DNA of 64,000 nucleotides, from assembly GCA_965645245.1 (NCBI GenBank), contig OZ287067.1, positions 3,038,001 through 3,102,000 on the forward strand, in the 5' to 3' direction. The position numbers and the translations under genes are program-made. Source of the DNA: Massalongia carnosa (lineage: Eukaryota). The notes under the pieces were generated by a model. It did no database searches, was not told the DNA's origin, and saw only the letters and a program-made list of their open reading frames with translations. Numbering within the stretch: the stretch's first letter is position 1; every line of letters starts with the position of its first letter. Below, piece after piece: positions 3,151 to 60,686 of this stretch.

Positions 3151-3246
3151 TTTAAACTCGGAGCGATAATCGCCCTTAACGACAAATAGTATCATGGTCG
3201 TTTACGTACACGCTAAGACGCTTCGAGTTATGAACACGAGTAATTA

Positions 3247-5188: not shown

Positions 5189-5393
5189 TAGTATGAATCT
5201 TTCAAAAAAGCTTGCGCACCTTAGAGATGGAGTCTGAAGATTTCCGTACTCCTCAATAATCATCTCGTAAAACTCTCCTCCATAAATAAAAAAACCCCAA
5301 CTTCCCGATCGATTATGATTACTCTTTCTTGATAAAATTCCAAGATTCTGTCTGCATAAAGCGCCGTGAACCCCCCCAACCAAACACGATTTC

Positions 5394-13174: not shown

Positions 13175-13194
13175 TACCTATTTACTTGCCTACT

Positions 13195-16600: not shown

Positions 16601-18899
16601 GGGTGTTGCCCCCGAGATCATGGCTTCCAGTATTTGCGCCCCGACTGAGCAACAGCTGCACAACGGTTTTATGACCCTTCGCCGAGGCCAGAGCCAATGC
16701 AGTCTCGCCACTATCACTCCTTCGATCGATATCTGCTCGTCCCTTTTCCAGAAGAATCTGAACGATTGACACGTGATTATGGTATGCCGCAACATGCAAA
16801 GCGGTAAGGCCGCGATCGTTAGTTTGGTTGGACCTCACGCCTTGATCCAAGAGCTTTCTCACCAGCACCTCGTTGCCCTCCTGCGCAGCTCCAATAAGTA
16901 TTAGCGACCTCACTCCTTCGATCCCAGTCGTAGGCAAAGATTTTACGAGCCTTCGAGTCTGGGGGCTGGCTCTGGATGGCGTGCCGGGTTTAGCTGATGC
17001 ATTAGAAATAACTCTGGCCGTAGTGATGGGGTTTCTGGTCATGGAGTCAAGCAGCAGTTGGACAATAGACTCGTATCCACTTCCCGCTGCAAGATCCATG
17101 GCGGTACGCTGCTGCCCATGTGTTTGAGCATCAAGATCCGGGTTCAATTCCAATATAGCCTCCACAACCTCAAAGTTTCCAGCTTGCGCTGCCCAGTGTA
17201 GTGCTGTCCACCCACGCTCATCCTTGGCTCGCACGTCAAAGCTACCTTTTTGTCGCCAATTAAGAACGCTCAAATGACCAAAATGGGAATCGACCATGAG
17301 ATTTGTGATTCCGCCAGGCGGCAAAGTTGGTGGATGAGCGCTGTTCCAGTATACCTGAAACCATGTTCTGAACCGGTCGGACGGCGGATCACAAAGGGAG
17401 GCAACCAGCTCAACTAGCGAAAGTGGTTCATTGGCTGCCATGAAATGCTCGGCCCAATGCTTGGCAGCATACTCGAGGAGCACATGTCGGCTCGTGTAAT
17501 CCTTGATCCTCAGCTCGATGTTTGAGCGGCTAACGTCCTGGCCAACGACGAGGGAATTGGTGTTGAAATTCGGCTTTGATAAAAATGACACGCAGATTTC
17601 GGCAAGCACCTTGTTTGATTCTACTGGATCTAGAACGTATTTCCATTTCCTAAAGCTCACGATCTCGTCATGAGCTGGTTTTATCAAGAACTCCTTTGCC
17701 GTTTGATGGACGAAAACAACACGGGTGTCCACGATCCGCAGAAGGATACCACAGTGTCTCTTAATGGTTTCAACGGTGACAACTTCTTCGTATTTGTTAT
17801 TTGGCTCTGCGCTACATTGAACTGCCATCGCCACATCGATTTCCTCCAGCGTAAGTGGCTCAGCGGCTGCAGCGACTATGTGAAGCAATCTCTTCGTGAT
17901 CCTGTTATCAGGACAATGGCTTAGACTTATCTCGTAGACATCAGAGACGGTGTTTACAGTGTCCGATATGTTTAAACTTTGAAGAGGATTGTCGTTAGAA
18001 TCGACGGGAGAGTGCTCGAGCCAGTCAAGAACAAGCGAGATGGCAAGAAACGTGCCCTCCTGTGTGCTGAGGAGATCGTTGATCAGTTTGGCTTGCACTT
18101 TTTTGGAAAAGCCCCTGACAAGACTTATCCGTTGAACGCGTGCCTCGATGAACAAGCAGTGGTCTTTCTCAGAAGCCAAGACTATCGACTTCATTTTGAT
18201 CTTCTCGAGACGCTTCAGCGAAGCGGATGAAGGCTTCAGTTCGATTCGGGTGGTAGCGATGATTTTCAACAAGCTTCCTTTCGTTTCGTCGGCCTCCCGA
18301 TCGGAGTAAAACCGGGCCATGGAGTTTATAAACGGCACCCGAGCTGCCTCCTGGCATTCGCTTAGGCCGTCGATGATACAGAGAACGTTGCCACACAAAG
18401 GGTCTGCCATGACGGACGCCAAAGTTCTCCACAGAGAGGTAAACTGCTCCGTGAAGGCGCGGCCTCGGGTGCGAAACTCATTGAGAGCATGTTGGATGAG
18501 TTGAGATTGATGGTCTCTCTGTGTGAACAGTTGATGTAAGATGGCGCAAAGGGCGCTTGAAGGGCTTCTATGGTCTTTGTTGCTGGCGTTGAAGAAGAAG
18601 TAGCAGACAGTACCAGACAATTCCTTTTGCGACTCTTCACTTCGCAATTGGTCGATCAAATACGACGCCAGAACGCTTTTCCCGCTGCCTAGCGGGCCAG
18701 ATAGCCATAGGAAGCTAGATCGAGGTTCTTCTTTCCACGAGCGATACAACGGCTCTTGCAGAAACCATTGGCATGATCCAGGCGCGCGGGGCGGAATTCT
18801 TCTTCTCTCCGACACGTAATCCGATTTATGCAACGTTCGCAGCAGGCGCTGGGTTTCGTCCGATGGTTGGCCAGACTCGCTTGCGGCTGTTGCTGCCAT
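13624..18899 (-). CDS. NLR-like NACHT + ankyrin repeats + C-terminal CorA-like transmembrane domain, multi-exon
   Basis: WLSGPLGSGKS Walker A, CIIDGLSEC Walker B, FVHQTAKEFL; GWTALHWAA/GLTALHVAA/GETALALAS ankyrins; downstream exons MPFLHYET, RRTLDQYYY, MVDQLWLWI and FTIVTIIF-LPLSFMTAFFALNI. Confidence 0.82.
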
Positions 18900-19469
18900 G
18901 TTTGATGAACCCTTCGTCGCGTGGGAATCAGTTCATGTTGCTGTGATCCGGTACTTGGGTCGCGTAGGCTGTCGCGATCAATCTTATCGCACGCAGCGCA
19001 CGACGAGAAAGTAGGACGGATGAGTGCGCGCAAATCAATGGCAATTTACGAAAAGCCGGCTGGACGTTCATCGCGCAAAGGTTCACCACTATTTATGGCG
19101 GACGCTCAGGGTAGTATTCAGCCTCATTGAACGAGCGGGCGGCCATCAGGTTATTTGCAGACTGCATGGCTTGCATCGGTCTAGAATTGGAGTTGGCCGA
19201 ATCCATCAATGATGCTGCAAGCCATTGACAAAAGATGGCCATAATTTGATGGGTTGAGGGTCTAGGGTCGTCTAGGGTCGAGGGTGAGAGTTGTCGGGGG
19301 CCTGCATTGGGGGTGGGATTGATGAGCGATCGGCGATGCACTAACTCGATTGGAATCCAACTAATCCCCAGCCCCGGAAAGCCGGCTTCATCGGCACATC
19401 GACAAGCTAACCAATTGGAGCTTCCAAGATCGAAATTTCTCCGTATGAGTCAGAACTTCAGACGTGCCA

Positions 19470-29328: not shown

Positions 29329-29524
29329 ATTAGTCAGAAAAGGGGGGGGGGGAAGGTTGAGGTAGGGATTGGGGAGGGGGGATATTTGGGTTTATGGGGG
29401 AGGCTGTGTGGGTGTTGCATAGATAGGTAGAAATGCATGAGGTTTTCTTCCGAACCTATTTATCTATATATATATTATATATACACCCCGAACTTAGGAT
29501 CTGAAGTTGCCGTTCCGGGACGGG

Positions 29525-29680
29525 AAAGGGAGCAGGGCCGCTTTAGAGGGAGCACCGAGGGAGCACAGGGAAGCACCGAGGGAGCACGGGAGAGCATCGA
29601 GGGAGCACGGGAGAGCGTCGTGGGAGCAGGGGGGAGTACTGAGGGAGCAGGAGGGAGCAGCAAAGGAGCACTGGGAGCAA
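29525..29680 (+). repeat. Subterminal array of ~10-11-bp GAGGGAGCA(C) motifs
   Basis: More than 10 degenerate copies; also found at 41141-41222 and 41982-42041. Confidence 0.85.
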
Positions 29681-31054: not shown

Positions 31055-33393
31055 ATGTCTTCAGAGCAATCAGAAGGTAATTATGGTGAAAGAATCTGGA
31101 CAAAGTTAGCCGATTATCGTCACATCAGGCACCAGCGGTATGCGGCCGTCAATGTTCTGTTGATATCCTGGAAAGACGACGATACGAACAGTGCAGCTGA
31201 AATCAAGCAATTGAAGACACTCTTTCAGGATTCTTTTAATTACACTGTCTGCTCCTACCAGATTCCTTCAGCTAACTCACAAGCATCGCTCAATCACCAA
31301 ACTGCCTCGTTTCTCATGGCCTTCGGAGGACCTGACAATCTCCTCGTAATTTACTATGGAGGCCACGGCGGACCGAGGATGCAACAGAGCAAAAGTCCTT
31401 GCACCTGGGCAGCGTGAGCTTCCCTTTGACTTCTTTAATGCTTATGACGATAGACTAATTTATCCTAATTTTCGCTTTCTACAGGAAACTCGAAGCTGAT
31501 AGCCCGAGCTTGGATTGGTCCATTATCCAGCCATCTCTCCTCAATGCAAACTGTGACGTGGCTATTATTCTTGACTGTTGTTATGCCGGTCAGGCTGCAA
31601 GGTCTGTCTCTGCTCAAACGATCGAGCTGCTAGCGGCAACGGACAAAGATCAGTGGACACCAAGCAGTACAAGTAGTTTGCAAACTTTTACAAAAGCTTT
31701 GATCAAAGCCATGGGAAGCATGATTGAAAAGGACGGAGTTGTGACTCTTCGTGGTCTTGCCAAATCCTTGTCACAAGCAGAGGCAGGTCTTCATAGGCAG
31801 CCTTTCCACGTTTCTCTTGGTGGTGATCATTTAGCTGGACAAATCAAGCTAGCTAAGCTTCGCGATCCGAGAGATTCGCATGCCCGACTTAGAGAAACGA
31901 ATCCCGCAGTCTCACTGCAGCTTAGATTGTCACTTTTTGAACCCCTCAACTCTGAAACTGCCTCATCGTTGATTCGATGGATGACAAGAGACTCACCTAC
32001 GTCTATAGAGGACATTCAATTTGCAGAAAAGGCATTTGCTGAAGCCAACGATACCAGCCAACTCTGTAATCAGCTTCTCGAAGTTCACTCACAGGCTGAT
32101 GGTCAGCTCTTGTCATACCTCTCCAAGCAAGGTCAAGCAGAGGGGCTCGCCCTGCTTTCACATTTACGGAGTGCAATGTCGAGTCCGACTTCCATTCATC
32201 TGACCGATATTGAAGCAGTGGAGATCATCAATACCATCAAGCAAAGATCACACGATTTAGTAGTATTCATCGAGGACTCGCTTCCACGCTTCAACACAAG
32301 CTCCTTGCAAGCTTTAGACGCGGGAGAGAACCAAGATCTCAAAACCCGTATCAACATGCGTTTAACGCTCATCACTGAAGACATGCCTGACAAAGAGACC
32401 GCAATTGCGTTTGATGTTACAGACCCACCTCGAGAAGGTCAGCGTTTTCGGATGGGATCGAAAGATGGCAAACGAGTGCTTGTAGAATATTTCTACTACG
32501 AGGAGACGAAAAGCAACTCGGACGCATCCATCTTACAACAAGTTAGAAGAATCTCAGCCATGCATACCGAAGGAAAAAGCAGAGCATTCCACTCAATGCA
32601 AGGGGTCGGTTTCCTACGGGAGTCGCTTCATAGAGTGAGGTACGGGATTATCTACCAAATTCCAGAGGAGACAAAAGGCCAATCCCCTTCGTGCCTATCG
32701 CACCTGATCTCTAAAGTCAATACAGTACCTCTTGAAGTTCGTATGCGTACAGCTTATGCTCTTTGTGAAGCTCTCCTGAATCTTCACTCCATTGGATGGT
32801 ACCACAAAGCAATCAAGTGCGAAAATATTCTTTGCTTTGGTCGTGATGCTGAATCAGACGGTAAAGGATCGTTCGATAAATGGGAACTGCATTTCCCTTA
32901 TCTCATAGGCTTCAATTGTTCTCGGCCATCCGCTGTCGAGACACATAGTACAGTGGACTTCACGACTGCCAACAATATCTATAGGCACCCAGACAGATGG
33001 GGCCATGCCGCACCATTTCAGAGACATCACGACATCTACGCACTGGTAAGCTTCATCTCTTCGCTATTCAATTATTAGTTTTGTTTTATGCCTCAGCTGC
33101 TAGAGCTGACAATGGTCAAGGGCATCTTGCTGCTGGAGGTTGGATGCTGGAGGCTGCTGGAAAATATGGGCGGAAAAGCAAAGACCTTTGAACATATCAA
33201 AAACCCTGAAAACCTACGGATGCAACTGCTAGGAAGTATCCTGGACAGGACCGCACATGCAGCAGGAACAAAATATGCCTCTGCTATACGTTTCTGTCTT
33301 GAAGAGCGGCGGTGGGGTGATCTGGAAGAATGGCAGGTCCAGAAAATGATGAGGCAGATGGTACTTGAGCCCCTCAAAGCATGTTGTTCGTAA
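31055..33393 (+). CDS. Caspase-like (CHF-fold) peptidase fused to a C-terminal pseudokinase, 3 exons
   Basis: VLLISW..LFQDSFNY..VIYYGGHG and IILDCCYAG His/Cys dyad; LHSIGWYHKAIKCENIL, LIGFNCSRP, IYRHPD and HDIYAL|GILLLEVG kinase-like motifs. Confidence 0.8.
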
Positions 33394-33671
33394 AAGCACT
33401 TTGATGGGGGAAAGGGTGAGTTGATGAGACATTCAGTAACCGGATTCCTCTACCACTTCCTTAAATGCTACAACGATACGGAAGAAAGGCCACGCAGGAC
33501 GTTTAAACGCTTCATCCAACATCAAGTAGGTTGATGGGTAGGTTTGTAAAGCCGTCTGACGGCTATTGAGAGGCGAGATAGTAGTCATTTCCTTGACTTT
33601 GATATTGGACGAAGTTTAGAACTCCTTCAACTCTATCCATCCATTATGAGGGCATCTCGCTGCTCTCATTC

Positions 33672-34158
33672 TCATATGTTCCGACGGAGATACTTGCCCT
33701 CAATTAATTCCGGGTGTGGAATGTTATCGGAGCGTCGAACAAGCTCATATAAATCATTAGGATGGGCTCGAACGATGAGGAATTCGCCTAGAGGTGCCCG
33801 ATACTCTGGTCTCACGATCCACACTACTTCGTTTATCTCGAAGGGAAACTAGAAAGCCAGGCTTGCTGTTAGAGATCACATACGGGCAGTTTTCTCCGCC
33901 TGAATATGAGGTTTTGGATAACAGGAGGCTAACCTCGGCCGCTTTTTGGTAGGGGTCGACATGTGTCTTCCGGTCTTTCTCTGGGATCTCGTCCTCGTCT
34001 TTCTGATTGTACTGTAGTCCATCCACTTTTGTCAGGCTACGACTCCTTGGAACTTCATTTTTCGTCAGGAGAAAGTCACTCACCGAATACTGATTCGATG
34101 CAGTAACAGCATTTGTCATCCAATTGTTCTGAGGCTGATTCTTGTCCTTGAAAGACAT
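33672..34158 (-). CDS. Small hypothetical protein, 2 exons
   Basis: Exon 1 MSFKDK...YQKAAE|GTTAGC; exon 2 after TTCTAG reads FPFEINEVVWIVRPEYRAPLGEFLIVRAHPNDLYELVRR...YLRRNI*. Confidence 0.6.
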
Positions 34159-34590
34159 GACCGTACGTAAACGAGGAGGACTGGTGTTTGTGTGGAAAAA
34201 GGTAATCTCAACTACAAGACAAAAGGCTCAGCAAGCAGTCAAAATGCGAAGCTGACGGATATCGTTAGGTTGGTTGCCTACATGACAGCCTGCAGCAGTC
34301 AGCTGCACACCTAGCTGCAGCGACGCCTTAGAACAACTGGGGTAGTGATTGGAGTCAAAAACGCCACGGAGGGGCAGGGATGTGAGGTCTCTGACTTCTC
34401 TATCGTCCGCACTCTCAGGCGAGAAATCAAGATGTCGCATCCTCACGCAAATATGAACTGTTGGATGTCAGCCCTATAACGCTAGTGGCATGGTGGTTTT
34501 ATAGTATCAATTTTATAGCTTTTACATATCATCAGTCATTTTACCAACAACTAGCCTATCACATGCTCCATCCTATAGCCTGCTGCCAAC

Positions 34591-35794
34591 ATGAACGGAC
34601 AGAAATGTAGGATCTGCGAAATCTCATCTGTCTTCTGAAAACATGGCGCAATCTTACACTTGAGATTTGTTGACCCTAACATCTCAGTACTGGAGGATTA
34701 CCCCCAAGGGTACCCCCGGCTCGCCGCTTTCCTCGCTCTGGATCGAGACTTCACCATATTCAAACGGTTCGATTACCTACACATAAGGAGCCTGCTGGGG
34801 CAACAAGACGAGCTGGCCGAGCTGCAGGAACGACTTGAACGGTGCGACGAAGCGGAGCCCATCCGGCTGGGCCTCAGCAGCCGACGGCAAGATGAGAACG
34901 CGGAGCGACGGGAATTGCTTCGACAGGTGAAAACCAAACTGCAAGAATACGACCGTTGTGTACAGGACTTTCACGCCATGCTGCGACTGCCTGAGGCTCA
35001 CCGGACGCAAAAGCAGAACGTGGAAAATTGGTACATAGGTAACAAACCGCTGGTGCGCTCGGAAAGTGCTTGCTATATGAACTGCACGCGTGGTCATGAC
35101 TACGTCGCTCTCACACCCAAGGATACCGATAGAGCCGGCCTGGAGACCCTCGTGGATCTCACGATGAGAACGTGTCCCAATGTTGCGAGGCATGTGAGAC
35201 AACCGCACTAGATTATCATGATACTGGTGTTACATACAGGCTAAAAAAAGTTTTTTTTCCCGAACAAGTAGTTCCTCAACCCAGAGGTGAGTTGACAGAA
35301 ACAAGAAGTGAGCGGAGAAAAGTGGAGGGAAAAAAAAGAAGTATCAAGCAATAATGCTATGTTCTGAGTCGAAATCTTTTCCAGGCCAAAACTCGCGACC
35401 GCAACATCTTCGTCTTCCAACCCAATTTCCTCAACCGCATCGTGAAGATCCTGTTCGCCTTCTTCATCCCCTTGTGGCTGGTCTTCCCCACCATCCTTCT
35501 CTACAACGCGACCAGCCACGGCAGCCGCGCGATCATCTACGCCATCTTTACCTTCTGGACGTCGTTCATCGTGATCTCCATGGCAAATGTCACCAAATAT
35601 GACCTCACCCTGGCACTGATCACGTAAGTTTTTTTTTCTTTGGTTTTTTGGTTTTTTGGTTTGGGCCGATGGGGTCCCTTAAAAACTTCAAAAAGGATTT
35701 TTCACGAAGGAGGGAGCGAGCGTTTCGTTGATGATAATTCAGATACACCACGCTTCTCGGGGCGTTTCTTGCTAGCAGTCCACGTCTTTCGTGA
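34591..35794 (+). CDS. DUF6594-family membrane protein, multi-exon
   Basis: LEDYPQGYPRLAAFL..FTIFKRFDYLHIRSLLGQQDELAELQERL signature; C-terminal hydrophobic helices (ILFAFFIPLWLVFP, AIIYAIFTFWTSFIV, LALITYTTLLGAFL). Confidence 0.8.
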
Positions 35795-36084
35795 CGTTCG
35801 TGCAGAATGTGTTGGTCACGACGGTGGACGTGAGGGGTTTGATTCGTGCGAGAAGGTGAAAGCCGGTCGTTGAGCAGGGATTTTGGAAGAATAATGAAGT
35901 GTAGCGACGGCCAGATGGATCTTGTCGTTTTTAAAAACGCGGTGGTTGATTCTATCCTGCTACTATGTTCGCATTGAGGTGTCCTCAAATCCTCGTCCGA
36001 GACGCCAGCCAGAGCTATTCGGGCTAGTTCCTTAAAGAAGATCTCACATTGAAGGGTTTGTTTTGACGTTTTTCATGCGTTGGG

Positions 36085-39000
36085 CTATGCTAAGCGTGTT
36101 CGGAGTCCACGAAGTCGGCGGAAATCGACCGAGAATACACTCCACTCGTCCTTCCAAGGCATCTTGGCCAGTTCCTGACCGGTGTATTTCCCTTCCAGGC
36201 TTGGCCATGAAGCCTTCACGTCCGCAATCTTTGGGTTGCGTCGAGCGAGTGATTTTGTGTGGCTTGCATACACCATTGACGAACTGATGTGAAACTCGGT
36301 GATGCCTTCGAATCGACGGTCATTTCTCAATAGATGCCACTGTAAAAGTTCTTGGGCCGCACGGAGTGAGCTGTTCCTCAAAGATTCAGCGGTCTTCTCC
36401 CCTGGAGTCAAAGTTGGACCGCTTGTTAAACCTTTGATTCGCTTTGCCCCTGTTTCGGCAGCATGAGATATGACGTGTGCGACGCGGTGTAGGAATTGAG
36501 GTTTTATGGTCGGTTCCAGAACGGCTTGCTTCGAGGGAATAGCATCTTGCGTTTTCGCTACTCCCATTGTCCCGCGAGCGAACAGCGACGAAGATGTCCG
36601 CGACACCCAGATTGCGATTTGAAACGGTAAGAAAGGAACCACCAGGTCATTCCCGTCATCGCTGGCTCTCTTTTTAGCCAAGAATGGCACATTTGCATCA
36701 GCTCCGGCCTCGAGTAGAAGCCGAATGACATCAAGGTCAAGAAAACTGGCCGCTCGCTGAAGCATGGTGACATCCTTCTCATCCGGCGTATCAATATATC
36801 CTGCCATTGACTCATTGGAGATCAAGGCTAGAAACGCATCCCAAAGCGAATTTTCAAAATTTTGGGATTTCGCATCCACATGGTGCTCTGAAAAGTAAAT
36901 ATCTCGAAATACGAGTAGCTGTTTAAGTACCTCATGCGCTTTAGATAAGACAAATCGCGTTGAGGAGTCCTTGTTGCCAGGATTCTTATTAATGAAGGCA
37001 TTGAGTTTTTCACGAGCCATGTCTTTGTGGAGTGAGAACCACCATGACGGATATTCATGTGCCATGCTTTTCTTAAGAAAATTTTCGTTTTCCTCCCCGT
37101 ACCTCGATAAGATTGCCTGCATTTCAATATCCCCTGTCTGAGCGGCGACATCAAAAATCGAAAACGTAGTGCGCTCATTGATCTTTTGATATCTGTCAAC
37201 TCCTTTCTCAAGCAAAACCTGCACACCCGTCGTCCAGCCTGCACTCACAGCCGTAAAGAGAACATTTTCCTTTCTATGAATATCAGCAGACTCTGGCTCC
37301 TTTAGTTCTTTGACCTCGTCGAGTTCAGCAACAGAGAAGTTGCGAAGTATTGCCTCAAGAACGGGCTTCCATGCTGTGTTAGCCCTTGCCTGTCTCAACG
37401 CTGTGTATAAGTTCGACATCAGTACTTCATCTCGTACATCGCTTTCGAAACCCTGTCTGATTATCGAAGGAGGACATAAATCCAGGAGCACTTCCAAAGC
37501 TTTGAGGCATGATTGAGTTCTTGCAAAGACGATGCAATTCCTGAGCATGGTATTGTAATTTATCAAATTATGTGCGTCACAGAGCCGAATGGTACGTTCA
37601 ATTGCAATGTCCCCATCTCGTCCATGAATAAACAGATGTGTAAAGGCTTGACTGTAATTGAGAATTGGATAATCTGCTTCGGAAACTAGACCAGATGATA
37701 ATGGCCCGTTGGAAAGCAGATCTTCAGCTATTTCATAATAGGCGTATGAAATTGCATGTCCAAGTACGTTTCTTTCTTGACCTTTGGAGTGTGGAAGTAA
37801 TGCAGCTACCAGACCACGGTTTCTTGCAATTACAGCCCATTCGATAGGAGTTCCAACTAATTCAAAGGTCGTCTTTGCCAAACGGGTCGCTTTAGAGCAG
37901 ACGTTGGTAGGGGCACCACAGGCAATTAGCAAGCTCACGGCTCTCTGAACAAGGTCCACAGGCATGTAAATCATAAGATGTAGTGCAGTAATGTCTTTTT
38001 TTCCACAAAGTGAGAGGTCAGCACCGTAATCAAGGATAAATTTCAGCGAAGACAGATTGCCACCTATACAAGCGCAACGCAACGCGTCGATTCGAGCCTT
38101 ACGGCCTGTGATCGCTTCACCATTTGAAAGGAGCCTCGCTATGACTTCATCCTCACCCAGTAATGCAGCAATTTCCAAGGTTGTCATGTCATCGGAACCA
38201 ACAATATCTGATCCAATTTTTCTGGAGAGCGTCGTCGTCGCTTGCAGTTCAATATAGTTAACATGTAACCAGGAGTGACCCTCAGACGATAAAGCTCGAA
38301 TCTGATTAGCTGCAGAGACAACTCTGGACTGAATTTTTCTCATTAAATATAGCTCAGAGGCAGCAAAACCCTCGATCTCATTGTTCTGACTTGTTTTAGG
38401 CTGGTTCTTTGGCTTTACGACGAGTTCAGGAGATGGAGACCCAAGCACTTCTGAAAACCTGCGCAAACAAATGGAAGATATATTACCATAAGATTTTGAA
38501 ATCTGGAGCCAGCGAAGAGCTTCTTCCGAATCATAGCTTGTGCCGAACGCGATGAGATAGCACTCCGCTAAATTTAAGGCAGCTCTCTCACGCACACTGT
38601 CAAAGAATTCGAAGGGTTTTGAAGAAGTGGCATACATCTTAAGTTCATCTAGAGCACGCCGTTGTAAGCTGTCTGGGAGGTTTAGGCATGTGTAATCCAA
38701 AAACTACAAAATATGTGCGGTTAGTTGTTTGTGATTCAATGAGTCGCGGAAAACTGTCAACACTGCATATTCACAGACATATTGACATGGAAGGTATGCT
38801 TACTTCTGCTCTTGGAAACTGTGTGCCCCAAGTTTGGAAGCCACTATGCGTGGTTTCAATGATTCTCGCTGAGACTTCGATTTCTTCAAAATCAAAACTG
38901 CAAATTAACATCAGTGTCAGTTTGCATTAATACAAGAAGTAGTCAATCAAACCCAGTCTTCTCTGCTTCCGGTAGAAGAATCTTCCAAATTTTTCGGATT

Positions 39001-40079
39001 GGTTGCCTTTGTAGAGGGTCATCTTGGAGGGAGGCATTAAATGCCTGTAAGGCTTTTTCATACAATATTTCATCCATGTTTTGAGCCGAGAGGAATTTTT
39101 TGCAATACGTCAGCAGTCCGTTACATGGGAGAGCCGATAGGAATGCCATCTTCTCCTCCACGTCCAATTCTTGCGTCGTTTTTCGAAAGGGATCCAGCCA
39201 AGCGACGTCGAAAAAAGAATGTCCATTGTTGAGGATTTCCCATAGTAAGAGGCCAAAAGAGAATATGTCTGCTTTGATTGCGGCAGCAATGTCAACAGAT
39301 CCAGCCCCCAGGGCTTGATTTCGAACCTCAGGTGCATTCAACAGTGGTGTTCCCAGCGGGTAGTATACATCTCTCTCTGAATCCGCAGAGAAATCTCCAG
39401 AATGTGCGTGTACGCTGAGTCCAAAGTCGGCTAATTTTGCTACATGACGGCCGTCATTACCGTTGAAGATTAGAATATTCTGAATCTTGAGGTCTCCATG
39501 GCAAATAAGGTCTTGATGCAGAAGGATCAGACCGCGGCTGACCTGAAAAGCTAGGTCAATCTTTAGTTTGGTGTCCAATTGCTGTCCGTTTCGCCGAAGA
39601 AAGGAAGCCATGTCACCGAGCTCTGAATATTCCAGGAGCAGGTGAAATTGGCCAGCGCCAGATGGGTCAAGACCGGCGAATGGTTTCTCGAAGCAAACGC
39701 CTACAACTTTGACGAAGAGATCCAACTGGCGAAAGGAAGTCGACGTGAGGATTCGTATTTCAAGCGTAAGACGCGCAAGATCCTTGTCGAAACGTGAGAT
39801 ATGCTTACGATTGCCATCCTGAAGACGTCTCGTGCGCTTGATGACAACACCAGGACGGCTTGATAGTTCCACGACCGCTTGTCCCCCAGAGCCTATGGGT
39901 TCAAGGTTGTTGAAACGTCCGCCTTCCACGAATTCTCCGTAATCAGAGACGTTGAATTTGCTGGAATGTAGTACCTGCATGAAATCAAGGGCCGGCGTTG
40001 AAAGTCGCGCGTCATTGCCAGCAGCAGAGGCGATTGAATTTTCGGCACTGGAGCTGCGCGGCCAGAGGGAAAAGGACAT
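36085..40079 (-). CDS. Protein kinase + ankyrin-repeat protein, multi-exon
   Basis: GSGGQAVV, VVIK, HGDLKIQNIL, LADFG, NAPE, DIFSFG in 38943-40079; ankyrin motifs TTLEIAA, ITALHL, GTPIEWAV, LLLEAGADAN in 36085-38700. Confidence 0.85.
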
Positions 40080-40619
40080 TGTTGCTACTGGTATCGCCGC
40101 TCAGTGACCATGCTAACTCCTATATTTCTTTTACAACATTTCGAAATAATTCTCGAACATGATGAGTAGCTGAGGTAGCAGCTGAGCGGCGCAACAGCTC
40201 CACAAGGCATGCACGAGGCTATCATAAATAGATGACTTGTACCTAAGTACCGTAAGCGCTAGGTCGCAGGGTCTTGGCACCCCAATGTGACATGTTCAGA
40301 CACTCCACGCTTTTGCCAGTGCGACGCTGCCCTGCTCCGCCAAAAATTTGGTCAAAAACTGGAAAGCCGAGACATCTGCACTGGGTTGCACAACGAGTGA
40401 TGCTCAATCCATACGAAGATGTAGAGTTTCGTATTTTCTCTCATAAATATGCAACGCCCAATGGTACATCTTTTCAGCCTCAAATATCTTCCCCTGATCA
40501 GCATATCGTGGGGCCAGATTGCTAAGGCTATCTAGTGTAGACGGGTGCTCAGGACCCCATGCCTCCTCCGTTCTATCCAATGTCTGCTGAGATATCTTCT
40601 CGGTTTGGGCTGAGCACAG

Positions 40620-40932
40620 CAGCCGCGTACGAAACCCTCTACGAAGTGTTTGGCCGTCTTCCTATCGTACGGTGTAGCGCCCGGGTTTCGCTTCTTATAT
40701 CTGTTTGACCGCACCATCAAAAAAGATTCCAGTAGTATTTTGGGGTCACAAAGGAAGTGATAAAGACTCACTCATCCCAAAGGACCAGCATGCGGGTTTA
40801 ATTCGTTTCCGTACCAGATTCGAGGCCTTTCGAGACTTTTTTGTTATTCAAATCGGTCTTTATCAAAGGTTCCAGACCATATGTTTCCGCATCGTCGAAG
40901 AATTGCGCAGCGATCCTCTTCTTCTTCTTCAT
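40620..40932 (-). pseudogene. Probable 5' remnant of a Starship captain (DUF3435-type tyrosine recombinase)
   Basis: MKKKKRIAAQFFDDAETYGLEPLIKT...GTETN*TRMLVLWDE|intron 40771-40701|YKKRNPGATPYDRKTAKHFVEGFVRG; resembles captain N-termini from memory; first gene inside the terminus; no catalytic domain present. Confidence 0.5.
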
Positions 40933-42791
40933 TGGGAAGGAGATTGATACAAAAGCTAAAGAACGAATACTTTATACATTGTCGACGGAACGAACGAAGG
41001 GGAAAATGGAGAGGGGTATACATAGACAGCCGGCAGAGCTATATATAGAGCCATCGGATCAGCATCCACTTCCAGCTGTATAAAGGGTCTCGCTTAAACT
41101 TGCAAGAAACTGACGGCGAATACGAAAGAAGGACGTGGCTGAGGGGGAGCACGGGGGAGCACAGAGGAGCACGAGCGAGCAACGAGGGAGCATAGGAGAG
41201 CAATGAGAGAGCATGAGGGAGCTGGCCTGCTGGGTCAGAAACCTCTACGTGGTGCAGGCTATCAACACCTCCTCGGAGGTGGCCAATATTTGATCATCGC
41301 CAACGCGGAAGTCCACCTCGGTGGCCATTTGAACGATCAACGTCTCTACTGATCATTCGTCACCTCGAAGGCACACATACAAAGCCCATTCATTCGGAAT
41401 GGCCACACCCCTCAGGCGGAAGCCTTTCACCACATCGAAAAAGCCCATTCATTTAGAATGGCCACACTTACACACCTTCATTTATACGACACCACGATCT
41501 GCCCTCGATCACGGCCAGTCTTTCCTCCATTGAATCAAAACGTTTAAAGAGAGAGAACGTTCGTCGAACGTGTGGAAATACACTGTCTAGTTCATCGAGT
41601 CTATAGGATTCTTAGCGCTTGAAGATCTGGGTGTATGCACCGCGTGGTAGAAGGACGGTCTCGTTGCGTTCAACATGGAACAAGGGAGTGGTTTTACCCT
41701 GGGGGCCAGGTTTCCACTTCCTGACTGTTGTTTATGTACATAAATAGCAGTCACAGCGTCATATCCTTAGGATGCATACGCTTAATGAATTAATAAAAAA
41801 AAAATAAAAAAATAGAGGGAGCATGTCGACGAATCGGGCCTTAGCGGGGGAGCAAAGCATCGAGGCCTGAGTCAGCAGGCGGTCACGTGTTGCCCTGGGT
41901 TCGGGGAAGATATATATTATACACCCCGAACTTAGGATTTGAAATTGCCGTTCCGGGACGGGAAAAGGAGCAGGGCCGCTTTAGAGGGAGCAACGAGGGA
42001 GCAGGAGGGAGCACTGAGGGAGCAAGAGGGAGCACTGAGGGTAGGGCTCTGAAAATTTCGAAATTCTGACAAGGTCGCACGAAAATTTCATCACGTGTGC
42101 GCGCCAAGCATGAAATTTTCGAAATTTATTACTAAGCACATATACATATCTTGTACATAGTTGCCTCAGTACCTCAGACGTGTTGTGGCACAGCCTTCGC
42201 CTGCACTAACCTCTTTCGGTTAGCTCGGCGCTAACTTATTTAGCCTATATGCCTAACCCTTTAAAGTTAGGCTTTGCTTACTAAGTTCGCTGTGCTTACA
42301 CGTCTGAGGACAAAACTCAATAATACGGGCAGGTTTGCTTAATAAATGAAATAATACTTAATTATCGAGCGGCCTTCCCCGATTGAGCGTAAAATATCAA
42401 CTCAATCATGTTATACCATACCGCCGTTTTTTATATGTGTTATTTTTATGTTTTGGAACCGCGCGGTCGAATATGTGCACTAAAGAACGACATCAAGGGA
42501 TGGCGAGCATGCTTTTTAAACTCGATGCAAGCTGGACAAAAAGCTCGGGTCTCAGTCTACAATGGACATCAATTTGGGTCACGAAAATAGTAAGAGAAAG
42601 TCGGTTGCAGCCGGTCATTGATTCATAACTAGCAGTGCATCTCTATAGCTAGACTATCCACGGCAAAGCCGCGCTGCGCGGATTTGCCACATGACATTTG
42701 GTCTACCTCTTTCTTCCCTTGGCTGCCTTTTTCACATTTTGGAAAGAGCAGGAGAAAAGACCGAGGTTATGAATGAGGTCGTTGTTGAGGC

Positions 42792-47887: not shown

Positions 47888-48549
47888 ATTGATGTAATAT
47901 CGCTACAACAAGAAAGCACGCTAGCAAGGACGACGACTATATTTTTGAGTTTGAAGTCCTGAAGAACTACGATAACATGATCCGCCAAGGCAATATGATG
48001 AATATGAGCGCCGACTGTTGAATTGAAGAGCAAGACTCAATTCGAAGTTGTTGTGCTGTCGTCGAGATTTGAGAGTCAATTTGAGTCGATGTTGCTCGAT
48101 GATGAAGATAACTGCGCAACGCACGCAGGATGTTTAAATTTTAGATCATTTAATAAAGAATATCTTAAAGTAGCGACGACAATAATGTATTATATTACAA
48201 CTATCATTCGTTGATCTTGTCTTAAACGTGAAAAACGATGATTTTAAATCTTAAGCGCGAAACTTACGTGTGTTGTCACCAAAATAACGCGAACCTGACA
48301 AAATTACAGAGTTTTGAACTCAGACCTGCCGCCCGAAGCATGCGTAGTAAGCTAAATAGAATCTTATCCTAAAACAGTTAAACATTTAACTAAATTGACT
48401 TAGCTTCTGACTAATTATATACTAATCCGAAAAGGCTTAGCTGTGGCGAGGGCAAGGCAGGTCTGAGGTACTGAGGCAAGTAGATAGATCGATACCTCAT
48501 TTTGATAGTCACTCTCATACATTTAAAGGTATCTTCCTATTTTATACTC

Positions 48550-50493
48550 ATGGCTCAACGCGGTGGAAGAAAGAAAAATTCTCTAATTGAGGAGAATTTC
48601 AAAGACGTGATCACCATGGGATTGAAAAAACCTCAGCATCAATGCATTCATTGTGGTCATCAGACTACCAAGAATGCTGTAAGAGGACTATCACATTTAG
48701 ATCAATGTGATGCCTACAAACAGAAGATAACAAAGAAGGAAGATGCCTCGTTCAGTTCTAGATCAATCCAACTGCCCATTACCACCATGATTCGTCCCCT
48801 TAGCCAGAGTCAAATTGCTCATGCTCATCGCGAGGCGGCGATGTCTGTTTATATGACAAATCTTCCCTTCAACCACTTCGAGAATCCCTATGTTATTGCG
48901 GCATTTCAAGCTCTTTCTCCTGGATACAAGCCCCCTCATGCCAGACTGATGGCTGGACGATTGTTGGATGAAGCCTATGAAACAGTTAAATTCAAAATAA
49001 ATCAAGAATTGAATGCTTGCAATCATCTCAGCTTTTTTACCGACGAGACAGCCAACATTCGAAAAGAGCGAGTAATAAATCTCTGCTGTCACGTTCCCAC
49101 ATCTGTCACTTCTAGTGGCGGAGGATTTCAGCTAAAAGCTGATGTCGGAGTGGCGGAAAAAATGACGGCAGTCGTACAAGCTGAATGGGTGATAAATGGA
49201 TGTAGGGATGCTACCAACAATCAGCTTGAAAGGGTTAATTGTATCTGCACCGACACGTGCTCTACAATGAAAGCCATGTGGACGGAAATTTCGAAAAGTG
49301 CAGAGATGAAGCATGTTTTCTTCGTACCTTGCGATAGTCATGGTTTGCAGCTATTGTTAGGAGACATTTTGAAATTTCCTTATTTTACAGATGTTATAGA
49401 AAAGGCTCAGTTGATCGTCATCAGTTTTCGCGGATCAAATAAGGAATTAGCCAGTTTATGGAAATACCAAATGAAGGCATACAAACAGCGTCGTTCCTTG
49501 GTTCTCAACGTTCTCACCAGATGGGGTACGACGGTTGGTCTTTTAAATTCAGTACTGAATAATCAACAGGCCTTGTTGGATTATTTTCAGCAGAAGAATC
49601 CAGGCATAGATCAGGGAAGAAATAAACCTTTGGGAAGTTTCGTCAACGATTATTCCTTTTGGAAGAAACTGACCATGGTCAAAAAGATACTGAATCCCAT
49701 TCATAAACTTCAGTACATGTCCGAAGCCGAGGGATATAAGCTATACACCGTAACAAATAACTGGAATATCATTCGCTCTCATCTGTACTCGATGGCCGAA
49801 GAAGAAAGCGACAGTGAGGCGGATCTATATCACATTGCTCACGTCGTTTGGGAAGATAGATATCTCAGTCAAATAACAGAGCTTCATGTGGTTGCATCTC
49901 TTCTGCTTCCGCAAAATCGTACGATAAAGGTGGTCGGAGTTACTACAGAACATGCTTTTTCATCGATCATGCATAGATTCTTTGCTCGATATCTGAATGC
50001 TGAAGATAGCATCGTTGCCATGAGACAATGGCTTGCTTTTCGAGATCAGGAAGATGGATTTCATGCAAACTCAGAATGTTGGACTTATCAGATGACACCG
50101 GAGCTGTTTTGGAATTTTTGCAAGCATTTTGCATTGATTCTTAGCAAGCTGGCCAGAAAGGTAATGATGCTTCCTGGCAATTCAGTGCTGGCAGAAAGAA
50201 GTTGGTCGGTCATGAATTTGATCATGAACAAGACTCGAAATTCCATGGCATCGATCAACGTGGATAAGCTGATGTTTATTTATCTGAATGAAAGAACTCT
50301 TAACCGACCGAAAGAAATCAAAAGGAAGCTACAATTCGCAGGCATTGACATAGAAGAAGACGATCTATGTGAGATGGAAGACAGAATGTTGCAGGAAGAA
50401 ATCTCTCTGCAAGAAACAGCGACAGTAAAATCGTTGAAACGACCAGCAAGTCAAGCGATAGAGGGAGATGCGGTCAGGCTCAGAGATACTTGA
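48550..50493 (+). CDS. hAT transposase (BED finger, DUF659, dimerisation domain)
   Basis: CIHC..H..C, TDETAN, CDSH, TRW and NSVLAERSWS motifs; intact ORF. Confidence 0.92.
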   Translation: MAQRGGRKKNSLIEENFKDVITMGLKKPQHQCIHCGHQTTKNAVRGLSHLDQCDAYKQKITKKEDASFSSRSIQLPITTMIRPLSQSQIAHAHREAAMSVYMTNLPFNHFENPYVIAAFQALSPGYKPPHARLMAGRLLDEAYETVKFKINQELNACNHLSFFTDETANIRKERVINLCCHVPTSVTSSGGGFQLKADVGVAEKMTAVVQAEWVINGCRDATNNQLERVNCICTDTCSTMKAMWTEISKSAEMKHVFFVPCDSHGLQLLLGDILKFPYFTDVIEKAQLIVISFRGSNKELASLWKYQMKAYKQRRSLVLNVLTRWGTTVGLLNSVLNNQQALLDYFQQKNPGIDQGRNKPLGSFVNDYSFWKKLTMVKKILNPIHKLQYMSEAEGYKLYTVTNNWNIIRSHLYSMAEEESDSEADLYHIAHVVWEDRYLSQITELHVVASLLLPQNRTIKVVGVTTEHAFSSIMHRFFARYLNAEDSIVAMRQWLAFRDQEDGFHANSECWTYQMTPELFWNFCKHFALILSKLARKVMMLPGNSVLAERSWSVMNLIMNKTRNSMASINVDKLMFIYLNERTLNRPKEIKRKLQFAGIDIEEDDLCEMEDRMLQEEISLQETATVKSLKRPASQAIEGDAVRLRDT

Positions 50494-52104: not shown

Positions 52105-55100
52105 TATCGTTGAGTTAAACCAAAGCGCCCAGGTCATTACGGAGTTCACGTCGATTGTGAACGACTTTTCAGCCTCAATTCCAGAACAACTCCTGCAGGC
52201 CGGAAGTCGAAGCTTAGCTCGTGTTCGCCAACGACTTGGTCTTGGAGCTGCAATGCCTTTGTCAGGAGGCCGCCCTCTAGAGCAGAAGAGCCATCGACCG
52301 GTCTTCCAAGTAGGTCAAGACCTTCCTGGCGCGTTCTCGGAGCTAGGTCCACGACACGATAATGATCACGCAAATATCTTCGACATCAAGATCCTGCCGA
52401 CTACCGAAGAAATTCAATCCCCCCGATTGGAGTACCTACCTTCGAGCAATCCTACGAAGCACCATCTTCCTGGTCTGGCGGGCTTACTCGACCGACAATT
52501 CAGACTTCTGCGTGAAGATACAGTCGGTCAACTCCGCGATGCAGTGCAAATGGAATGTAAGCGGCTTAACAAACCCCCTAATGCCCAACCGCCATCGAAG
52601 CGACAGAACAATGGCGTTCGGAATATCATCTATCACAACATCGCTCTGCTTCGACTTGAGTTCGATCGGAAGAAAGGGCTCCAGGTTGTGGCTGAGTTTG
52701 ACCAACCTCCCGCACTGGCAAAGAAGGGAGCCAAGGAGCGAGAAGAGTGGTGGAGGAATACCAAACAGCTACAGATCGATGCTTTTGTATGCCTTGTCTC
52801 TTCCACAGGTCGTGCTATCTTCTTCTCTATCTGCGATCCCACTCCGACGCCTCCGCCAAAGAGGAACACTGGTGAGGAAGAACGTGAGGTTCGATCAGCC
52901 GGATTTTGGAAGGCCTTTAATGAGCGGCCGAGTCTTTTCAAGCATGCAGACCGAGCCACGTTAATGCTAAGCCCGGTGGAGGATGATTCGGAAAATATCA
53001 CTTGGATCAACAATCACCTCGGAAAGACTCACAAGCCACGACAGTCGCTTGTCGAGTTTCCAGGAATTCTGCTACCGTCCTTCCGACCAACGCTGCAAGC
53101 ACTTCAAAAAATGAGCCGCACCCTTGATCTCCCTTTCGCTCAATTTATCGCCCCCGACACAATATACAGGAGACGTCGACATACCTGCCCCTGCGTACTC
53201 TCGCAGGCCTGGCTTTTCCTTCAATCTGGAGACCTTGGCTGGAGGAGAGCAGCTGAGACTTACACCCGGACAGCCTTTCAACGATAACACACTCCGCGAG
53301 AAATCCACACTCGATGATGCGCAGCAGCTGTCTACCATAAATGCTTTAAGAAGTTGTCTTGCGCTAATCCAAGGCCCGCCCGGCACCGGCAAGAGCTACA
53401 CCGGTGTCGCTATCATTAAGGCCTTACTGAAAAATCGCAATTCAGCTAAGCTTGGGCCAATCATTTGTGTATGCTACACAAATCACGCTCTCGACCAACT
53501 TCTCGAGCATCTGGTTGAAGACGGCGTGGAGCAGCTTATCCGTTTGGGATCGAGGTCGAAATCGGAACTCCTCCAGGACTTGAACCTCCACCACATATCG
53601 AAGGAAATCAGGCCCACAAAGATCGAAGGCCATGAGAAACATCAACTTTATGCAAAGTTAGATATCGCTCTTGATGAGATCGAGGAGCTCATGCCAGGCC
53701 TCAGGGATCCAGCTCACTGGAGTAATATCAAAGAATATCTCGAAAACCACCACTATGGCCACTTCAAACAACTTTTCGGACGTGGAGTGGACCAAGATGG
53801 ATTCCAGGAGGTACGCGGTAGGAATTTCAATATTTTGAATAGCTGGGTCAAAGGAGCACCCAAGCGCATTACTTCAACTCGTCCGATTCCGGAGCTTCTC
53901 GGTGTTATTTTAAAGGAGATGTCTGGCTCCGAGCGATTGGCTTTGCACAGGTACTGGGTCCAACAAAACACCATGGAACTCACCCGCCGTTTCCTACACG
54001 TTCTCGACTCATATCGCCACATCAATGATTCGCTCAAAAAGTGCCACCAAGAGCTAGACCTGCGTTGCCTACTTCGCGCGCACATCATCGGTGTTACAAC
54101 CACAGGCCTGGCACGAAATTTAGACATCCTCCGCCGAGTGCGAGCAAAGGTGGTGGTGTTTGAAGAGGCGGGAGAGGTATTGGAGGCACATACCCTCACC
54201 GCACTCCTGCCTTCCGTCGAGCATGCCATTCTTATTGGGGATCACGAGCAGCTAAGGCCCCAGATCAACAACTACGAGTTCCAATACGACAATCCCAGGG
54301 GTGCAAAATTCTCTTTAGATATCTCGCTTTTCGAACGACTGGTCCATCCTCAATCTGGTTATCCGCGGCTTCCTTACAGTTCGCTGGAGGTTCAGCGTCG
54401 TATGTATCCATCGATCGCGGAGCTGATTAGGTCCACGCTCTATCCTAAGCTGCAAGATCACCCATCGGTATCCACGTTTCCAGAAGTCGACGGAATGCGG
54501 AAACGTCTCTTCTGGCTCGCTCACAACAAGAGGGAAGATGCTTCCCCCTCGAATACAGCGCAGTCATTTTCCAAGACGAATACTTGGGAGGTAGAGATAA
54601 CAGCTACTCTGGTCTCCCATCTCGTCCGCCAAGGAATCTACCGGAATAAAGATATCGCGGTCCTGACTCCTTATCTGGGACAGTTGCAGAAGCTCAAACA
54701 GCGCCTACGATCTTCCTTCGCGATCGTGGTCGGTGACCGAGGTCTCGAAGATTTGGAGGCGAAGGGCTTGGAGGGTGACGGTGAAGAAGAGGCGACTGCA
54801 ACTCAAGGCAACGTTCGCAAGACAACGTTGCTGAACGCTTTGAGGATTGCTAGCGTGGACAACTTTCAGGGAGAAGAGGCGAAAGTTATCGTTATTTCAT
54901 TGGTCCGGAGCAACGATGAAAGGAAGTGTGGATTCCTAAAGACCTCGAATCGCATTAACGTCTTGCTAAGTCGCGCCCGCCACGGAATGTATATAATCGG
55001 CAACACAGACACCGCACGCCCCGTTCCTATGTGGGACAAGGTTATCACCATGCTCGAGAAGGAGGAGAACATAGGTAACGCTTTAGCGCTATGCTGCCCC

Positions 55101-60411: not shown

Positions 60412-60550
60412 GCTTGCTGAATACTATTGCGCTTTCTGGTGAGGAAGTCGATAACCTCGTGCAATGTCTTTAGGATCGTTTGCTATAGAATAATCAAGGA
60501 CTCTTGTCAAGCACTTCGGGATTGGCTGCATTATTAGAAGGTGAAGTAGA

Positions 60551-60686
60551 TGGCGGCATCCTCAACTGGCGGCATCCAGAATTGGCGGCATCCAAACATC
60601 CACAGCTGGGGGCATCCGGAATTGGCAACATCCACAACTAGCGACATCCAGAAATGGCGGCATCCAGAACTGGCAGCACCCATGGC
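60551..60686. repeat. Degenerate 16-bp tandem repeat (TGGCGGCATCCAGAAY) about 8 copies
   Basis: Read directly from the sequence. Confidence 0.8.

Follow-up and report, generated by a model that had tools for sequence, protein, structure and literature searches.

According to the available parts of PMC8851545 and PMC12881547, the het-Q-type clusters of fungi consist of two or three genes, are found in many Pezizomycotina and place a protease gene (het-Q2), fused to regulatory domains, next to a membrane-acting partner, the gasdermin of het-Q1. PMC12881547, a 2025 review, in its available parts also describes HELL domains on kinase and pseudokinase proteins and proteases fused to 'kinase-like domains', reports the NWD2/HET-S and PNT1/HELLP systems, in which a sensor and an executioner are clustered in a fungal accessory region and sensing is by repeat domains, and treats the RIPK3-MLKL pair, an active kinase acting with a pseudokinase-coupled effector, as established for mammals. 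Here we analyse a 64,000-nucleotide (nt) stretch of Massalongia carnosa DNA (assembly GCA_965645245.1, contig OZ287067.1, positions 3,038,001 to 3,102,000 of the forward strand; hereafter the window), in which four adjacent genes, G1 to G4, encode a predicted caspase-like protease with a pseudokinase tail, a small protein, a DUF6594 membrane protein and a kinase with ankyrin repeats. This four-gene cassette of about 9 kb is conserved in Pezizomycotina, where it is co-inherited in shuffled order (Table 1). In all likelihood the four genes act together, possibly as a switch for cell death or defence.

The cassette resembles the het-Q clusters in combining a fused protease with a membrane-acting partner, but its protease appears to be C14/metacaspase-like whereas HET-Q2-like proteases are of CHAT or S8 type, its partner is a DUF6594 integral membrane protein instead of a gasdermin, and, unlike the gasdermin/protease clusters, it has an active-type kinase and a small protein as further fixed members. 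No gasdermin (HET-Q1/RCD-1-like) was present among the Pfam matches of window open reading frames (ORFs) of ≥110 residues (aa) outside the module, of the module pieces or of the module loci. With RIPK3-MLKL it shares the pairing of an active-type kinase with a pseudokinase-coupled effector; the effector is here a protease, whereas that of MLKL is a four-helix bundle, the cassette has no RHIM or amyloid motif, and phosphorylation of the pseudokinase by the kinase would be the presumed link. The likeness to the clustered NOD-like receptor (NLR) systems lies in the accessory location and the repeat-bearing putative sensor, but that sensor would be the kinase, no amyloid signalling motif or NOD domain is present, and Pfam gave no NACHT or NB-ARC match in G1-G4. 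G1 itself resembles the metacaspases and other Peptidase_C14 proteins in its His-Gly and Asp-Cys-Cys dyad, in canonical order, and by profile homology, and differs from them in its borderline Pfam scores and its fusion to a pseudokinase. We found no description of this cassette in the literature, although Dataset S2 of PMC8851545 could list related architectures, and full-text searches for 'DUF6594', 'PF20237' and 'DUF7580' gave no match, in agreement with an earlier note on this DNA, made from the letters alone, that knew of no described function for DUF6594.

Linkage of the genes in named genomes was judged by consecutive locus tags or accessions. G1 and G3 are consecutive in Fusarium verticillioides (FVEG_12492/12493), F. 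tjaetaba, F. phyllophilum, F. mundagurra, F. mangiferae, F. nygamai, F. coicis, F. napiforme, F. pseudoanthophilum and F. denticulatum; ten species of the F. fujikuroi complex with the pair are close kin and were counted as one lineage. The same two genes are neighbours in F. gaditjirri (FGADI_13094/95), F. decemcellulare (FDECE_1542/41), Hymenoscyphus albidus (HYALB_00012254/55), Whalleya microplaca and Annulohypoxylon truncatum, and are separated by one accession in Lasiosphaeris hirsuta. Three successive accessions of Cercophora samala correspond to G3, G4 and G1, and G3 and G4 have consecutive accessions in Usnea florida. The independent lineages belong to Lecanoromycetes, Leotiomycetes and Sordariomycetes (Hypocreales, Xylariales and Sordariales), and the linkage holds across these three classes at 34-50% protein identity. 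The size of the longest contig on record also coincides for 17 G1/G3, nine G1/G4 and 12 G3/G4 pairs, and for all three genes in five cases; these coincidences were drawn from 67, 47 and 38 proteins with a contig on record and, for contigs of megabase size, indicate the same contig only.

A scan of Joint Genome Institute (JGI) metagenome contigs with the G1 alignment returned 32 loci. Grouped at 95% identity, these gave ten distinct loci of caspase type and 12 that belong to pseudokinase paralogues; one further locus (L031) is C14-only. Loci were picked by G1 motifs that include the Cys motif, so that conservation of the Cys in this set is partly by construction, whereas the neighbouring genes were unselected. 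Three of the ten caspase-type loci lie on contigs of just 1.3-2.7 kb, which stop at G1 and show no neighbours. G3 adjoins G1 in all seven others; G2 is present in each of the five that reach past G3, and G4 in each of the four that reach further. The order of the genes differs between loci (Table 1), with G2 and G3 adjacent and divergent in the window as well as in L001, L003, L004 and L007. The 12 distinct paralogue loci, 156 kb in all, served as a control and contained neither G3 nor G2. Adjacency that survives a reshuffled order points to selection for linkage and not to frozen synteny, and we regard it as nearly certain that the four genes form one functional unit. That they form a module had been claimed in the earlier note, with a test by recurrent co-occurrence set beforehand, and such co-occurrence was found in Lecanoromycetes, Sordariomycetes, Leotiomycetes and metagenome contigs. 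No signal emerged from a search for shared promoter k-mers in 12 module intergenic regions, the best 8-mer occurring in 5 of 12, whereas 200 mononucleotide shuffles gave up to 6.

Table 1. Coordinates of the cassette, its sequence motifs and its bracketing repeats in the window, and comparable arrangements in metagenome loci (locus:positions).
Feature	Position	Strand	Description
135-nt direct repeat, left copy	29470..29603	.	carries 21-nt minisatellite
G1	31055..33393	+	C14/caspase-like domain (predicted), helical middle, DUF7580-type pseudokinase; 730 aa
G1 exons	31055-31413, 31485-33045, 33121-33393	+	from homologue alignment; GT-AG introns
G1 putative catalytic-His motif GGHGG, aa 102-106	31358..31372	+	from homologue alignment
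G1 putative catalytic-Cys motif LDCCYAG, aa 149-155	31570..31590	+	from homologue alignment
G1 degenerate kinase core, WYHKAIKCEN and IGFNCSRP	32797..32928	+	read from sequence and alignment
G2	33672..34158	-	109 aa; exons 34158-34084, 34011-33934, 33848-33672
G3	34591..35794	+	DUF6594, 275 aa; exons 34591-34606, 34688-35193, 35272-35286, 35385-35623, 35743-35794
G3 loop motif LSSRRQD, aa 68-74	34873..34893	+	conserved
G3 loop motif GNKPLVRSES, aa 123-132	35038..35067	+	conserved
G3 C-terminal hydrophobic helices	35439..35773	+	about aa 197-221, 227-248 and, weaker, 254-270; Kyte-Doolittle windows >=1.6
G4	36085..40079	-	non-RD ('HGD') kinase and Sel1-like/ankyrin region, 1279 aa; exons 40079-38953, 38897-38804, 38703-36085
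G4 catalytic loop HGDLKIQN and ADFG	39420..39500	-	read from sequence
135-nt direct repeat, right copy	41910..42041	.	89% identical to left copy
Gene order, window			G1(+) G2(-) G3(+) G4(-)
Gene order, L001			G2(-) G3(+) G4(-) G1(+)
Gene order, L003 and L004			G1(+) G3(-) G2(+) G4(-)
Gene order, L005			G2(-) G1(+) G4(-) G3(+)
HGD kinase-ankyrin gene with divergent HeLo-DUF7580 gene	L015:44-3859; L018:5716-10852; L021:5580-10933; L026:5730-11098		also in L017, L024 and L029

The gene models combine stop-to-stop frames with alignments of homologues and with GT-AG introns that have branch-site-like motifs; spliceosomal introns are present in the window, which is fungal DNA. The closest named relatives of the genes are Lecanoromycetes, given the identities to Usnea florida (85% for G3, and also for G4) and Mycoblastus sanguinarius (91% for part of G3). 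On re-modelling, the four adjacent genes that the earlier note had placed at 31055-40079 and called free of lesions proved intact, and the His and Cys and the kinase-like tail that it gave to its caspase-fold protease, here G1, its description of G3 as a DUF6594 protein with C-terminal hydrophobic helices and that of G4 as a kinase with ankyrins and a complete active site were borne out; its small protein of about 130 aa exists as a gene, but the product was corrected to 109 aa in three exons. The fold check that it proposed for DUF6594 recovered the expected helices in a model of an orthologue (P0166), but at poor confidence and with no Foldseek match in the Protein Data Bank (PDB).

Homologues of about 730 aa from Fusarium, Cercophora, Lasiosphaeris, Lachnellula, Mollisia, Polyplosphaeria, Annulohypoxylon and Dactylella match the G1 model end to end. 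The His and Cys of the putative dyad are invariant in all 20 full-length homologues, and the His is also preserved in all of the caspase-type metagenome loci. Peptidase_C14 (PF00656) was detected by Pfam in seven of the 20 homologues at E<=0.1 (best 3.1e-4), and P0027 is the sole one to reach the 21.4-bit cut-off. A metagenome protein, encoded in L031, matches Peptidase_C14 at E 5e-10 (39.9 bits) and aligns with the G1 family profile by hhalign at a probability of 95.8% (E 6.6e-9, 155 columns), with both G1 catalytic motifs in register with its His and LDCCYAGQ motifs, at 24% identity to the G1 protease domain. Through this intermediate the link of G1 to the caspase fold appears firmer than through direct Pfam matches, and the N-terminal domain of G1, in which the His precedes the Cys in the canonical order, is predicted to be a C14/metacaspase-like protease. 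The L031 locus (702-3517) carries an EACC1-like ORF followed by the Peptidase_C14 and TPR protein with FSGHA and LDCCYAGQ motifs, and is probably bacterial, as its GC content is 55-59%. This EACC1-Peptidase_C14-TPR arrangement has the LDCCYAGQ and GH motifs in common with G1 and differs from it in its EACC1, C14 and TPR composition and in having no pseudokinase; we take EACC1 to be a conflict-system marker.

The C-terminal part of G1 has HKA in place of HRD and GFN in place of DFG, most relatives having GFD at the latter position, and is therefore a pseudokinase, since both the HRD Asp and the DFG are absent. The tails of the homologues match Pkinase in 20 of 20 and DUF7580 in 17 of 20 cases (Pfam, E<=0.1). 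Against PDB sequences the G1 family profile gave weak matches, with IRAK4 (E 0.003) ahead of the MLKL pseudokinase (E 0.026).

G3 matches Pfam PF20237 at E 6.3e-31 and 3.2e-7, with 108.5 bits over profile positions 1-152 and 31 bits over 153-229 against a cut-off of 30; its 15-nt micro-exon and short last exon were placed by alignment with P0075, P0092 and P0094. The protein has a helical N-terminal part of about 190 aa followed by two strong and one weaker hydrophobic helix. The AlphaFold2 (AF2) model of P0166 has helices at 192-220, 224-245 and 250-270, although the model as a whole is poor (mean predicted local distance difference test, pLDDT, 59.4; predicted template modelling score, pTM, 0.31). 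Pfam found no DNA-binding or other signalling domain on G3, and a search of the ESM Atlas with G3 gave no match. Two basic motifs stand out in the N-terminal part. The first, LSSRRQD, is nearly invariant in a 21-sequence alignment (A3), takes the form LSS[RC][RK]x[DN] in all five distinct module loci covering that part, and falls within a stretch of pLDDT<50 between two helices of the P0166 model; it is a candidate cleavage or phosphorylation site. The second, GNKPLVRSES, is preserved in the module loci, comprises invariant columns within A3 and likewise lies in a low-confidence loop of the model. In the module loci the extended motifs read LSS[RC][RK]x[DN]xNxx[RK]R and NWxxGN[KR]PxVRSE[SA].

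The kinase and ankyrin ORFs belong to a single gene, G4, as they do in the Usnea, Xanthocarpia, Pseudocyphellaria and Cercophora proteins, the exon junction being set from Usnea P0123, and the product aligns end to end with orthologues of 1242, 1246 and 1186 aa (P0137, P0145 and P0153). Pfam assigns Pkinase (E 1.7e-20, 74 bits against a cut-off of 31.7) and Ank_2 (E 2.9e-17). The catalytic motif set is complete (GSGGQAVV, VIKR, HGD..N, DFG and APE), and G4 is predicted to be an active-type kinase, with HGD replacing HRD. Its best solved relatives are kinases of the tyrosine kinase and tyrosine kinase-like types, namely FGFR3, TNNI3K, LRRK2 and CTR1. Just upstream of G4, at 40407..40661 on the minus strand, lies a TPR_10 or NPHP3-type TPR fragment (Pfam TPR_10, E 5.5e-9), which is probably a remnant of an NLR- or kinase-TPR-type gene.

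The three-exon model of G2 follows from P0196, a 109-aa protein that is 68% identical over its full length and revealed the third exon. A 133-aa ORF (33757-34158) was rejected as the product of this gene, since the true G2 uses parts of that ORF and ends in another frame; as a tblastn query the ORF found no match in any metagenome locus. The conserved part of G2 is its C-terminal region of about 58 aa, which is present in all five distinct module loci long enough to contain it and matches no Pfam family even at E<=10. An ESM Atlas model of G2 resembles the SH3-like C-terminal part of retroelement integrases at a template modelling (TM) score of about 0.49, a lead only, and the domain may be a small, beta-rich, SH3-like barrel.

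RNA evidence was taken from Logan contigs, those of run X2 coming from a relative about 90% identical and those of X1 from a lichen metatranscriptome; one RNA run that matches part of the stretch is labelled a lichen metagenome. Such contigs cannot rank expression, and gaps in the X1 or X2 cover carry no information. An X2 contig of 3012 nt omits 31414-31484 and 33045-33119 (33046-33120 in the model), which are the G1 introns to within one base, and also omits 34012-34083, the first intron of G2 (GTGAGT...CTGAC...CAG on the minus strand); the latter joint recurs in an X1 contig. As plus- and minus-strand introns are both removed from it, the 3012-nt contig must merge the convergent transcripts of G1 and G2. 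The two genes are convergent in the window, with transcripts that overlap or abut (33394-34198). A second X2 contig contains G4 exon 1, then 86 unaligned letters where exon 2 has 94 nt, and resumes exactly at 38703. These contigs show transcription and splicing of G1, G2 and G4 in a relative. For G3, the letters of an X1 contig before 34691 encode the same N-terminus as the model. The leader of that contig, whose loose end is at 34691, resembles both 34442-34461 and the start codon region at 34591, and the 5' end of G3 may be rearranged or duplicated in this genome (34442-34465 versus 34591-34606).

The pseudokinase paralogues provide a second context for these domains. Pfam scans covered ten of the 12 distinct paralogue loci, and in six of the ten (L015, L017, L018, L021, L024 and L026) a HeLo domain precedes the DUF7580 pseudokinase. 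A kinase gene stands beside the pseudokinase gene in eight of the 12, and in L015, L018, L021 and L026 this kinase is on the opposite strand and carries ankyrin repeats. In L027 (2918-10891) and L028 (207-6307) a kinase and TPR_10 gene is followed on the same strand by an active-looking kinase-DUF7580 fusion of 807-812 aa. The HGD motif occurs in six of the seven distinct paralogue loci that cover it, L028 having HCD, and in both distinct module loci. HeLo is confined to the paralogous loci and was not found by Pfam in the G1 homologues; in a tree of the pseudokinase domain, the sequences of caspase type (eight rows) group in a single clade with 97/99 support, separate from those of HeLo type. 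We read these arrangements as a shared chassis, a repeat-bearing HGD kinase with an X-pseudokinase in which X is HeLo or the C14 protease; G3 and G2 are found with the protease version only. Because the paralogues carry HeLo in place of the caspase-like domain, mostly with a neighbouring HGD kinase, they lend indirect support to a cell-death framing. We found no description in the literature of a kinase gene neighbouring a HeLo-pseudokinase.

The working that we propose, modelled on RIPK3-MLKL and on the protease-gasdermin pairs, is a regulated cell-death or defence switch running from kinase to pseudokinase-protease to DUF6594; it is plausible as a whole at a little under an even chance, and we infer each of its arrows as well as the cell-death outcome. 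On the same chassis as the fungal pairs of a repeat-bearing HGD kinase and a HeLo-pseudokinase, in the manner of RIPK3/MLKL, G4 would sense a cue through its repeats and act on the pseudokinase domain of G1, and this action would free the C14 protease. The protease might then cut G3 within a conserved disordered loop, at LSSRR|QD or KPLVR|SES, and the cut would alter the membrane-embedded part, either permeabilising the membrane or releasing the helical domain, with G2 as an adaptor or brake that modulates the chain. Metacaspases cleave after Arg or Lys, a specificity that would fit the RR and VR sites of G3, and non-RD kinases are over-represented in innate immune signalling.

Several observations weigh against this pathway or narrow its base. 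The L001 kinase has ADLS in the place of DFG, and catalysis by G4 may therefore not be universal. The G1 exon pieces of the window gave no Pfam match at E<=0.01, and just seven of the 20 homologues are recognised as Peptidase_C14, at borderline scores. G3 is predicted to be a constitutive membrane protein, whereas gasdermins and HeLo proteins are soluble until triggered; its comparison with the HeLo profile gave an hhalign probability of 0.2%, and a Foldseek search of the PDB with the poor P0166 model returned coiled-coil look-alikes only, with no match at E<=0.001. Linkage in Fusarium, read from name lists, covers G1 and G3 only, and among close relatives some of the co-occurrence reflects vertical synteny. 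The X1 contig retains introns 2 and 3 of G3, where only the N-terminal junction is backed by RNA, and X2 retains intron 2 of G2; as they are unspliced in these runs, these three introns rest on homology.

The same module could act without killing the cell, as a regulated-proteolysis pathway in which G1, once it has received kinase input, releases the membrane-tethered N-terminal domain of G3 for a stress or membrane-homeostasis response. G3 is permanently anchored in the membrane, and both its large cytosolic domain and its exposed loops are conserved, features that would suit such a role; release accounts for these features as well as pore activation does, and neither the fold search nor the HeLo profile likens G3 to a known pore former; but the sibling loci place HeLo, a known membrane-attacking death domain, where the protease sits, the module is found among NLR, HET and TPR genes both here and in L006, and a released G3 fragment would carry no DNA-binding or signalling domain that Pfam can detect, all of which makes a non-lethal role rather unlikely in our judgement. 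G3 might also be a membrane anchor or regulator of a G1/G4 complex instead of a substrate, the targets of the protease being unlinked and G2 acting as a scaffold. Tight co-inheritance does signify a functional tie without giving its direction, and the pseudokinase and helical linker of G1 are plausible docking surfaces; however, where clustered fungal proteases have a known partner they act on their neighbour (het-Q2 on het-Q1 and Q2L-6 on Q1-6, in the available parts of PMC8851545), and the conserved basic motifs of G3 fall in predicted loops, so that we consider a mere anchoring role distinctly improbable.

Two further explanations concern the neighbourhood itself. That the genes lie together through inherited synteny or chance, and have no function in common, gains something from the many closely related Fusarium species among the named cases and from the large size of the DUF6594 and kinase families in fungi, but it is scarcely credible given that adjacency persists in at least four different orders or orientations and at such divergence between classes, and that the linkage is missing from all 12 distinct paralogue loci. 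The alternative that the module is cargo of a decayed Starship-like element with a destroyed captain stems from the earlier note, which had assigned the genes to a mobile 'element A'. The hallmark of Starships is a DUF3435 tyrosine-recombinase 'captain' at one end. In its favour, the genes lie between the two copies of the 135-nt direct repeat, transposons are frequent in the window, the order of the module is shuffled between lineages and L001 has, at 14283-14981 on the minus strand and 2.3 kb from its G1, a fragment of the DUF3435 C-terminus (E 1.7e-5), a single observation. Against an element on this timescale, no DUF3435 match was obtained by Pfam in ORFs of >=110 aa across the whole window or among 113 selected ORFs (>=45 aa) at 25-31, 33.4-34.6 and 40-46.6 kb, nor by tblastn of the L001 fragment against the window (best E 0.45), and the indices of repeat-induced point mutation (RIP) are unremarkable at 24-46 kb and show no RIP signature. 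At least five contigs of run X8, from a relative, share the left repeat but are otherwise unlike, so that it is a minisatellite-bearing dispersed repeat and not a shown element end, and a 12.5-kb X8 contig has the module colinear and joined to the same left-side sequence, with a deletion of 1135 nt. Two X8 joints (29565->41988 and 29560->41173) lie inside the repeated minisatellite with sides of 38-48 nt and are no proof of an empty site. Long-term vertical presence across classes, moreover, requires no element. We hold an origin as Starship cargo to be very improbable, and neither the destroyed captain nor the mobility of the module claimed in the earlier note is supported. That note is thus partly confirmed, its observation being largely right, its mechanism a well-motivated hypothesis and its mobile-element frame unsupported.

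Inside the repeats that bracket the module, the 21-nt minisatellite (GAGGGAGCAC-type units) is found at 29546-29658, 41152-41222 and 41984-42054, and the mean depth of X8 is 1302 in the bin of the left repeat versus about 235 over the module. Elsewhere in the window, a Tc5/pogo-type transposon at 3245-5190 has a 598-aa frame with DDE_1 and HTH_Tnp_Tc5 and perfect 87-nt inverted ends (3245-3331 and 5104-5190), and looks recently active. A Tc1/mariner-type transposase is split over two frames (HTH_Tnp_Tc3_2 and DDE_3) at 11997-13181 on the minus strand. The plus strand has, at 48484-50490, a transposase frame of hAT type with DUF659 and a hAT dimerisation domain. A separate NLR-type gene with NACHT/NPHP3_N and ankyrin domains (904-aa frame, 16221-18932, minus strand) is 12 kb from the module. 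A plus-strand frame of 1408 aa at 53115-57338 combines AAA_11/AAA_12 helicase domains with an RZ-type zinc finger at its C-terminus, a ZNFX1-like architecture. A 16-nt tandem unit (GGCGGCATCCAnAAnT-like) is present in seven copies at 60537-60682, at the start of an open frame for which Pfam gave no match.

As a cell-death or defence switch, the cassette would add a protease under kinase/pseudokinase control to the few known clustered fungal cell-death systems, in which an NLR is paired with a HeLo amyloid partner or a protease with a gasdermin, and its DUF6594 subfamily gains a concrete partner that can be tested. Tractable genera carry the cassette, and its catalytic residues are clear targets for mutation, so that the hypothesis is directly testable. 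The pairs of HeLo-pseudokinase and HGD kinase suggest that fungi have the kinase-to-pseudokinase logic of necroptosis in the form of a gene pair. A wider generalisation, which we offer as doubtful, is that filamentous ascomycetes possess a general, so far unrecognised death or defence chassis in which a repeat-bearing HGD kinase and a DUF7580 pseudokinase work with a swappable N-terminal effector. A C14 protease in the effector position would bring in two further genes, DUF6594 being a new class of protease-triggered membrane executioner and G2 its guard or adaptor. If this were true, the HeLo version would be the fungal counterpart of RIPK3-MLKL and the large DUF6594 family would gain its first function.

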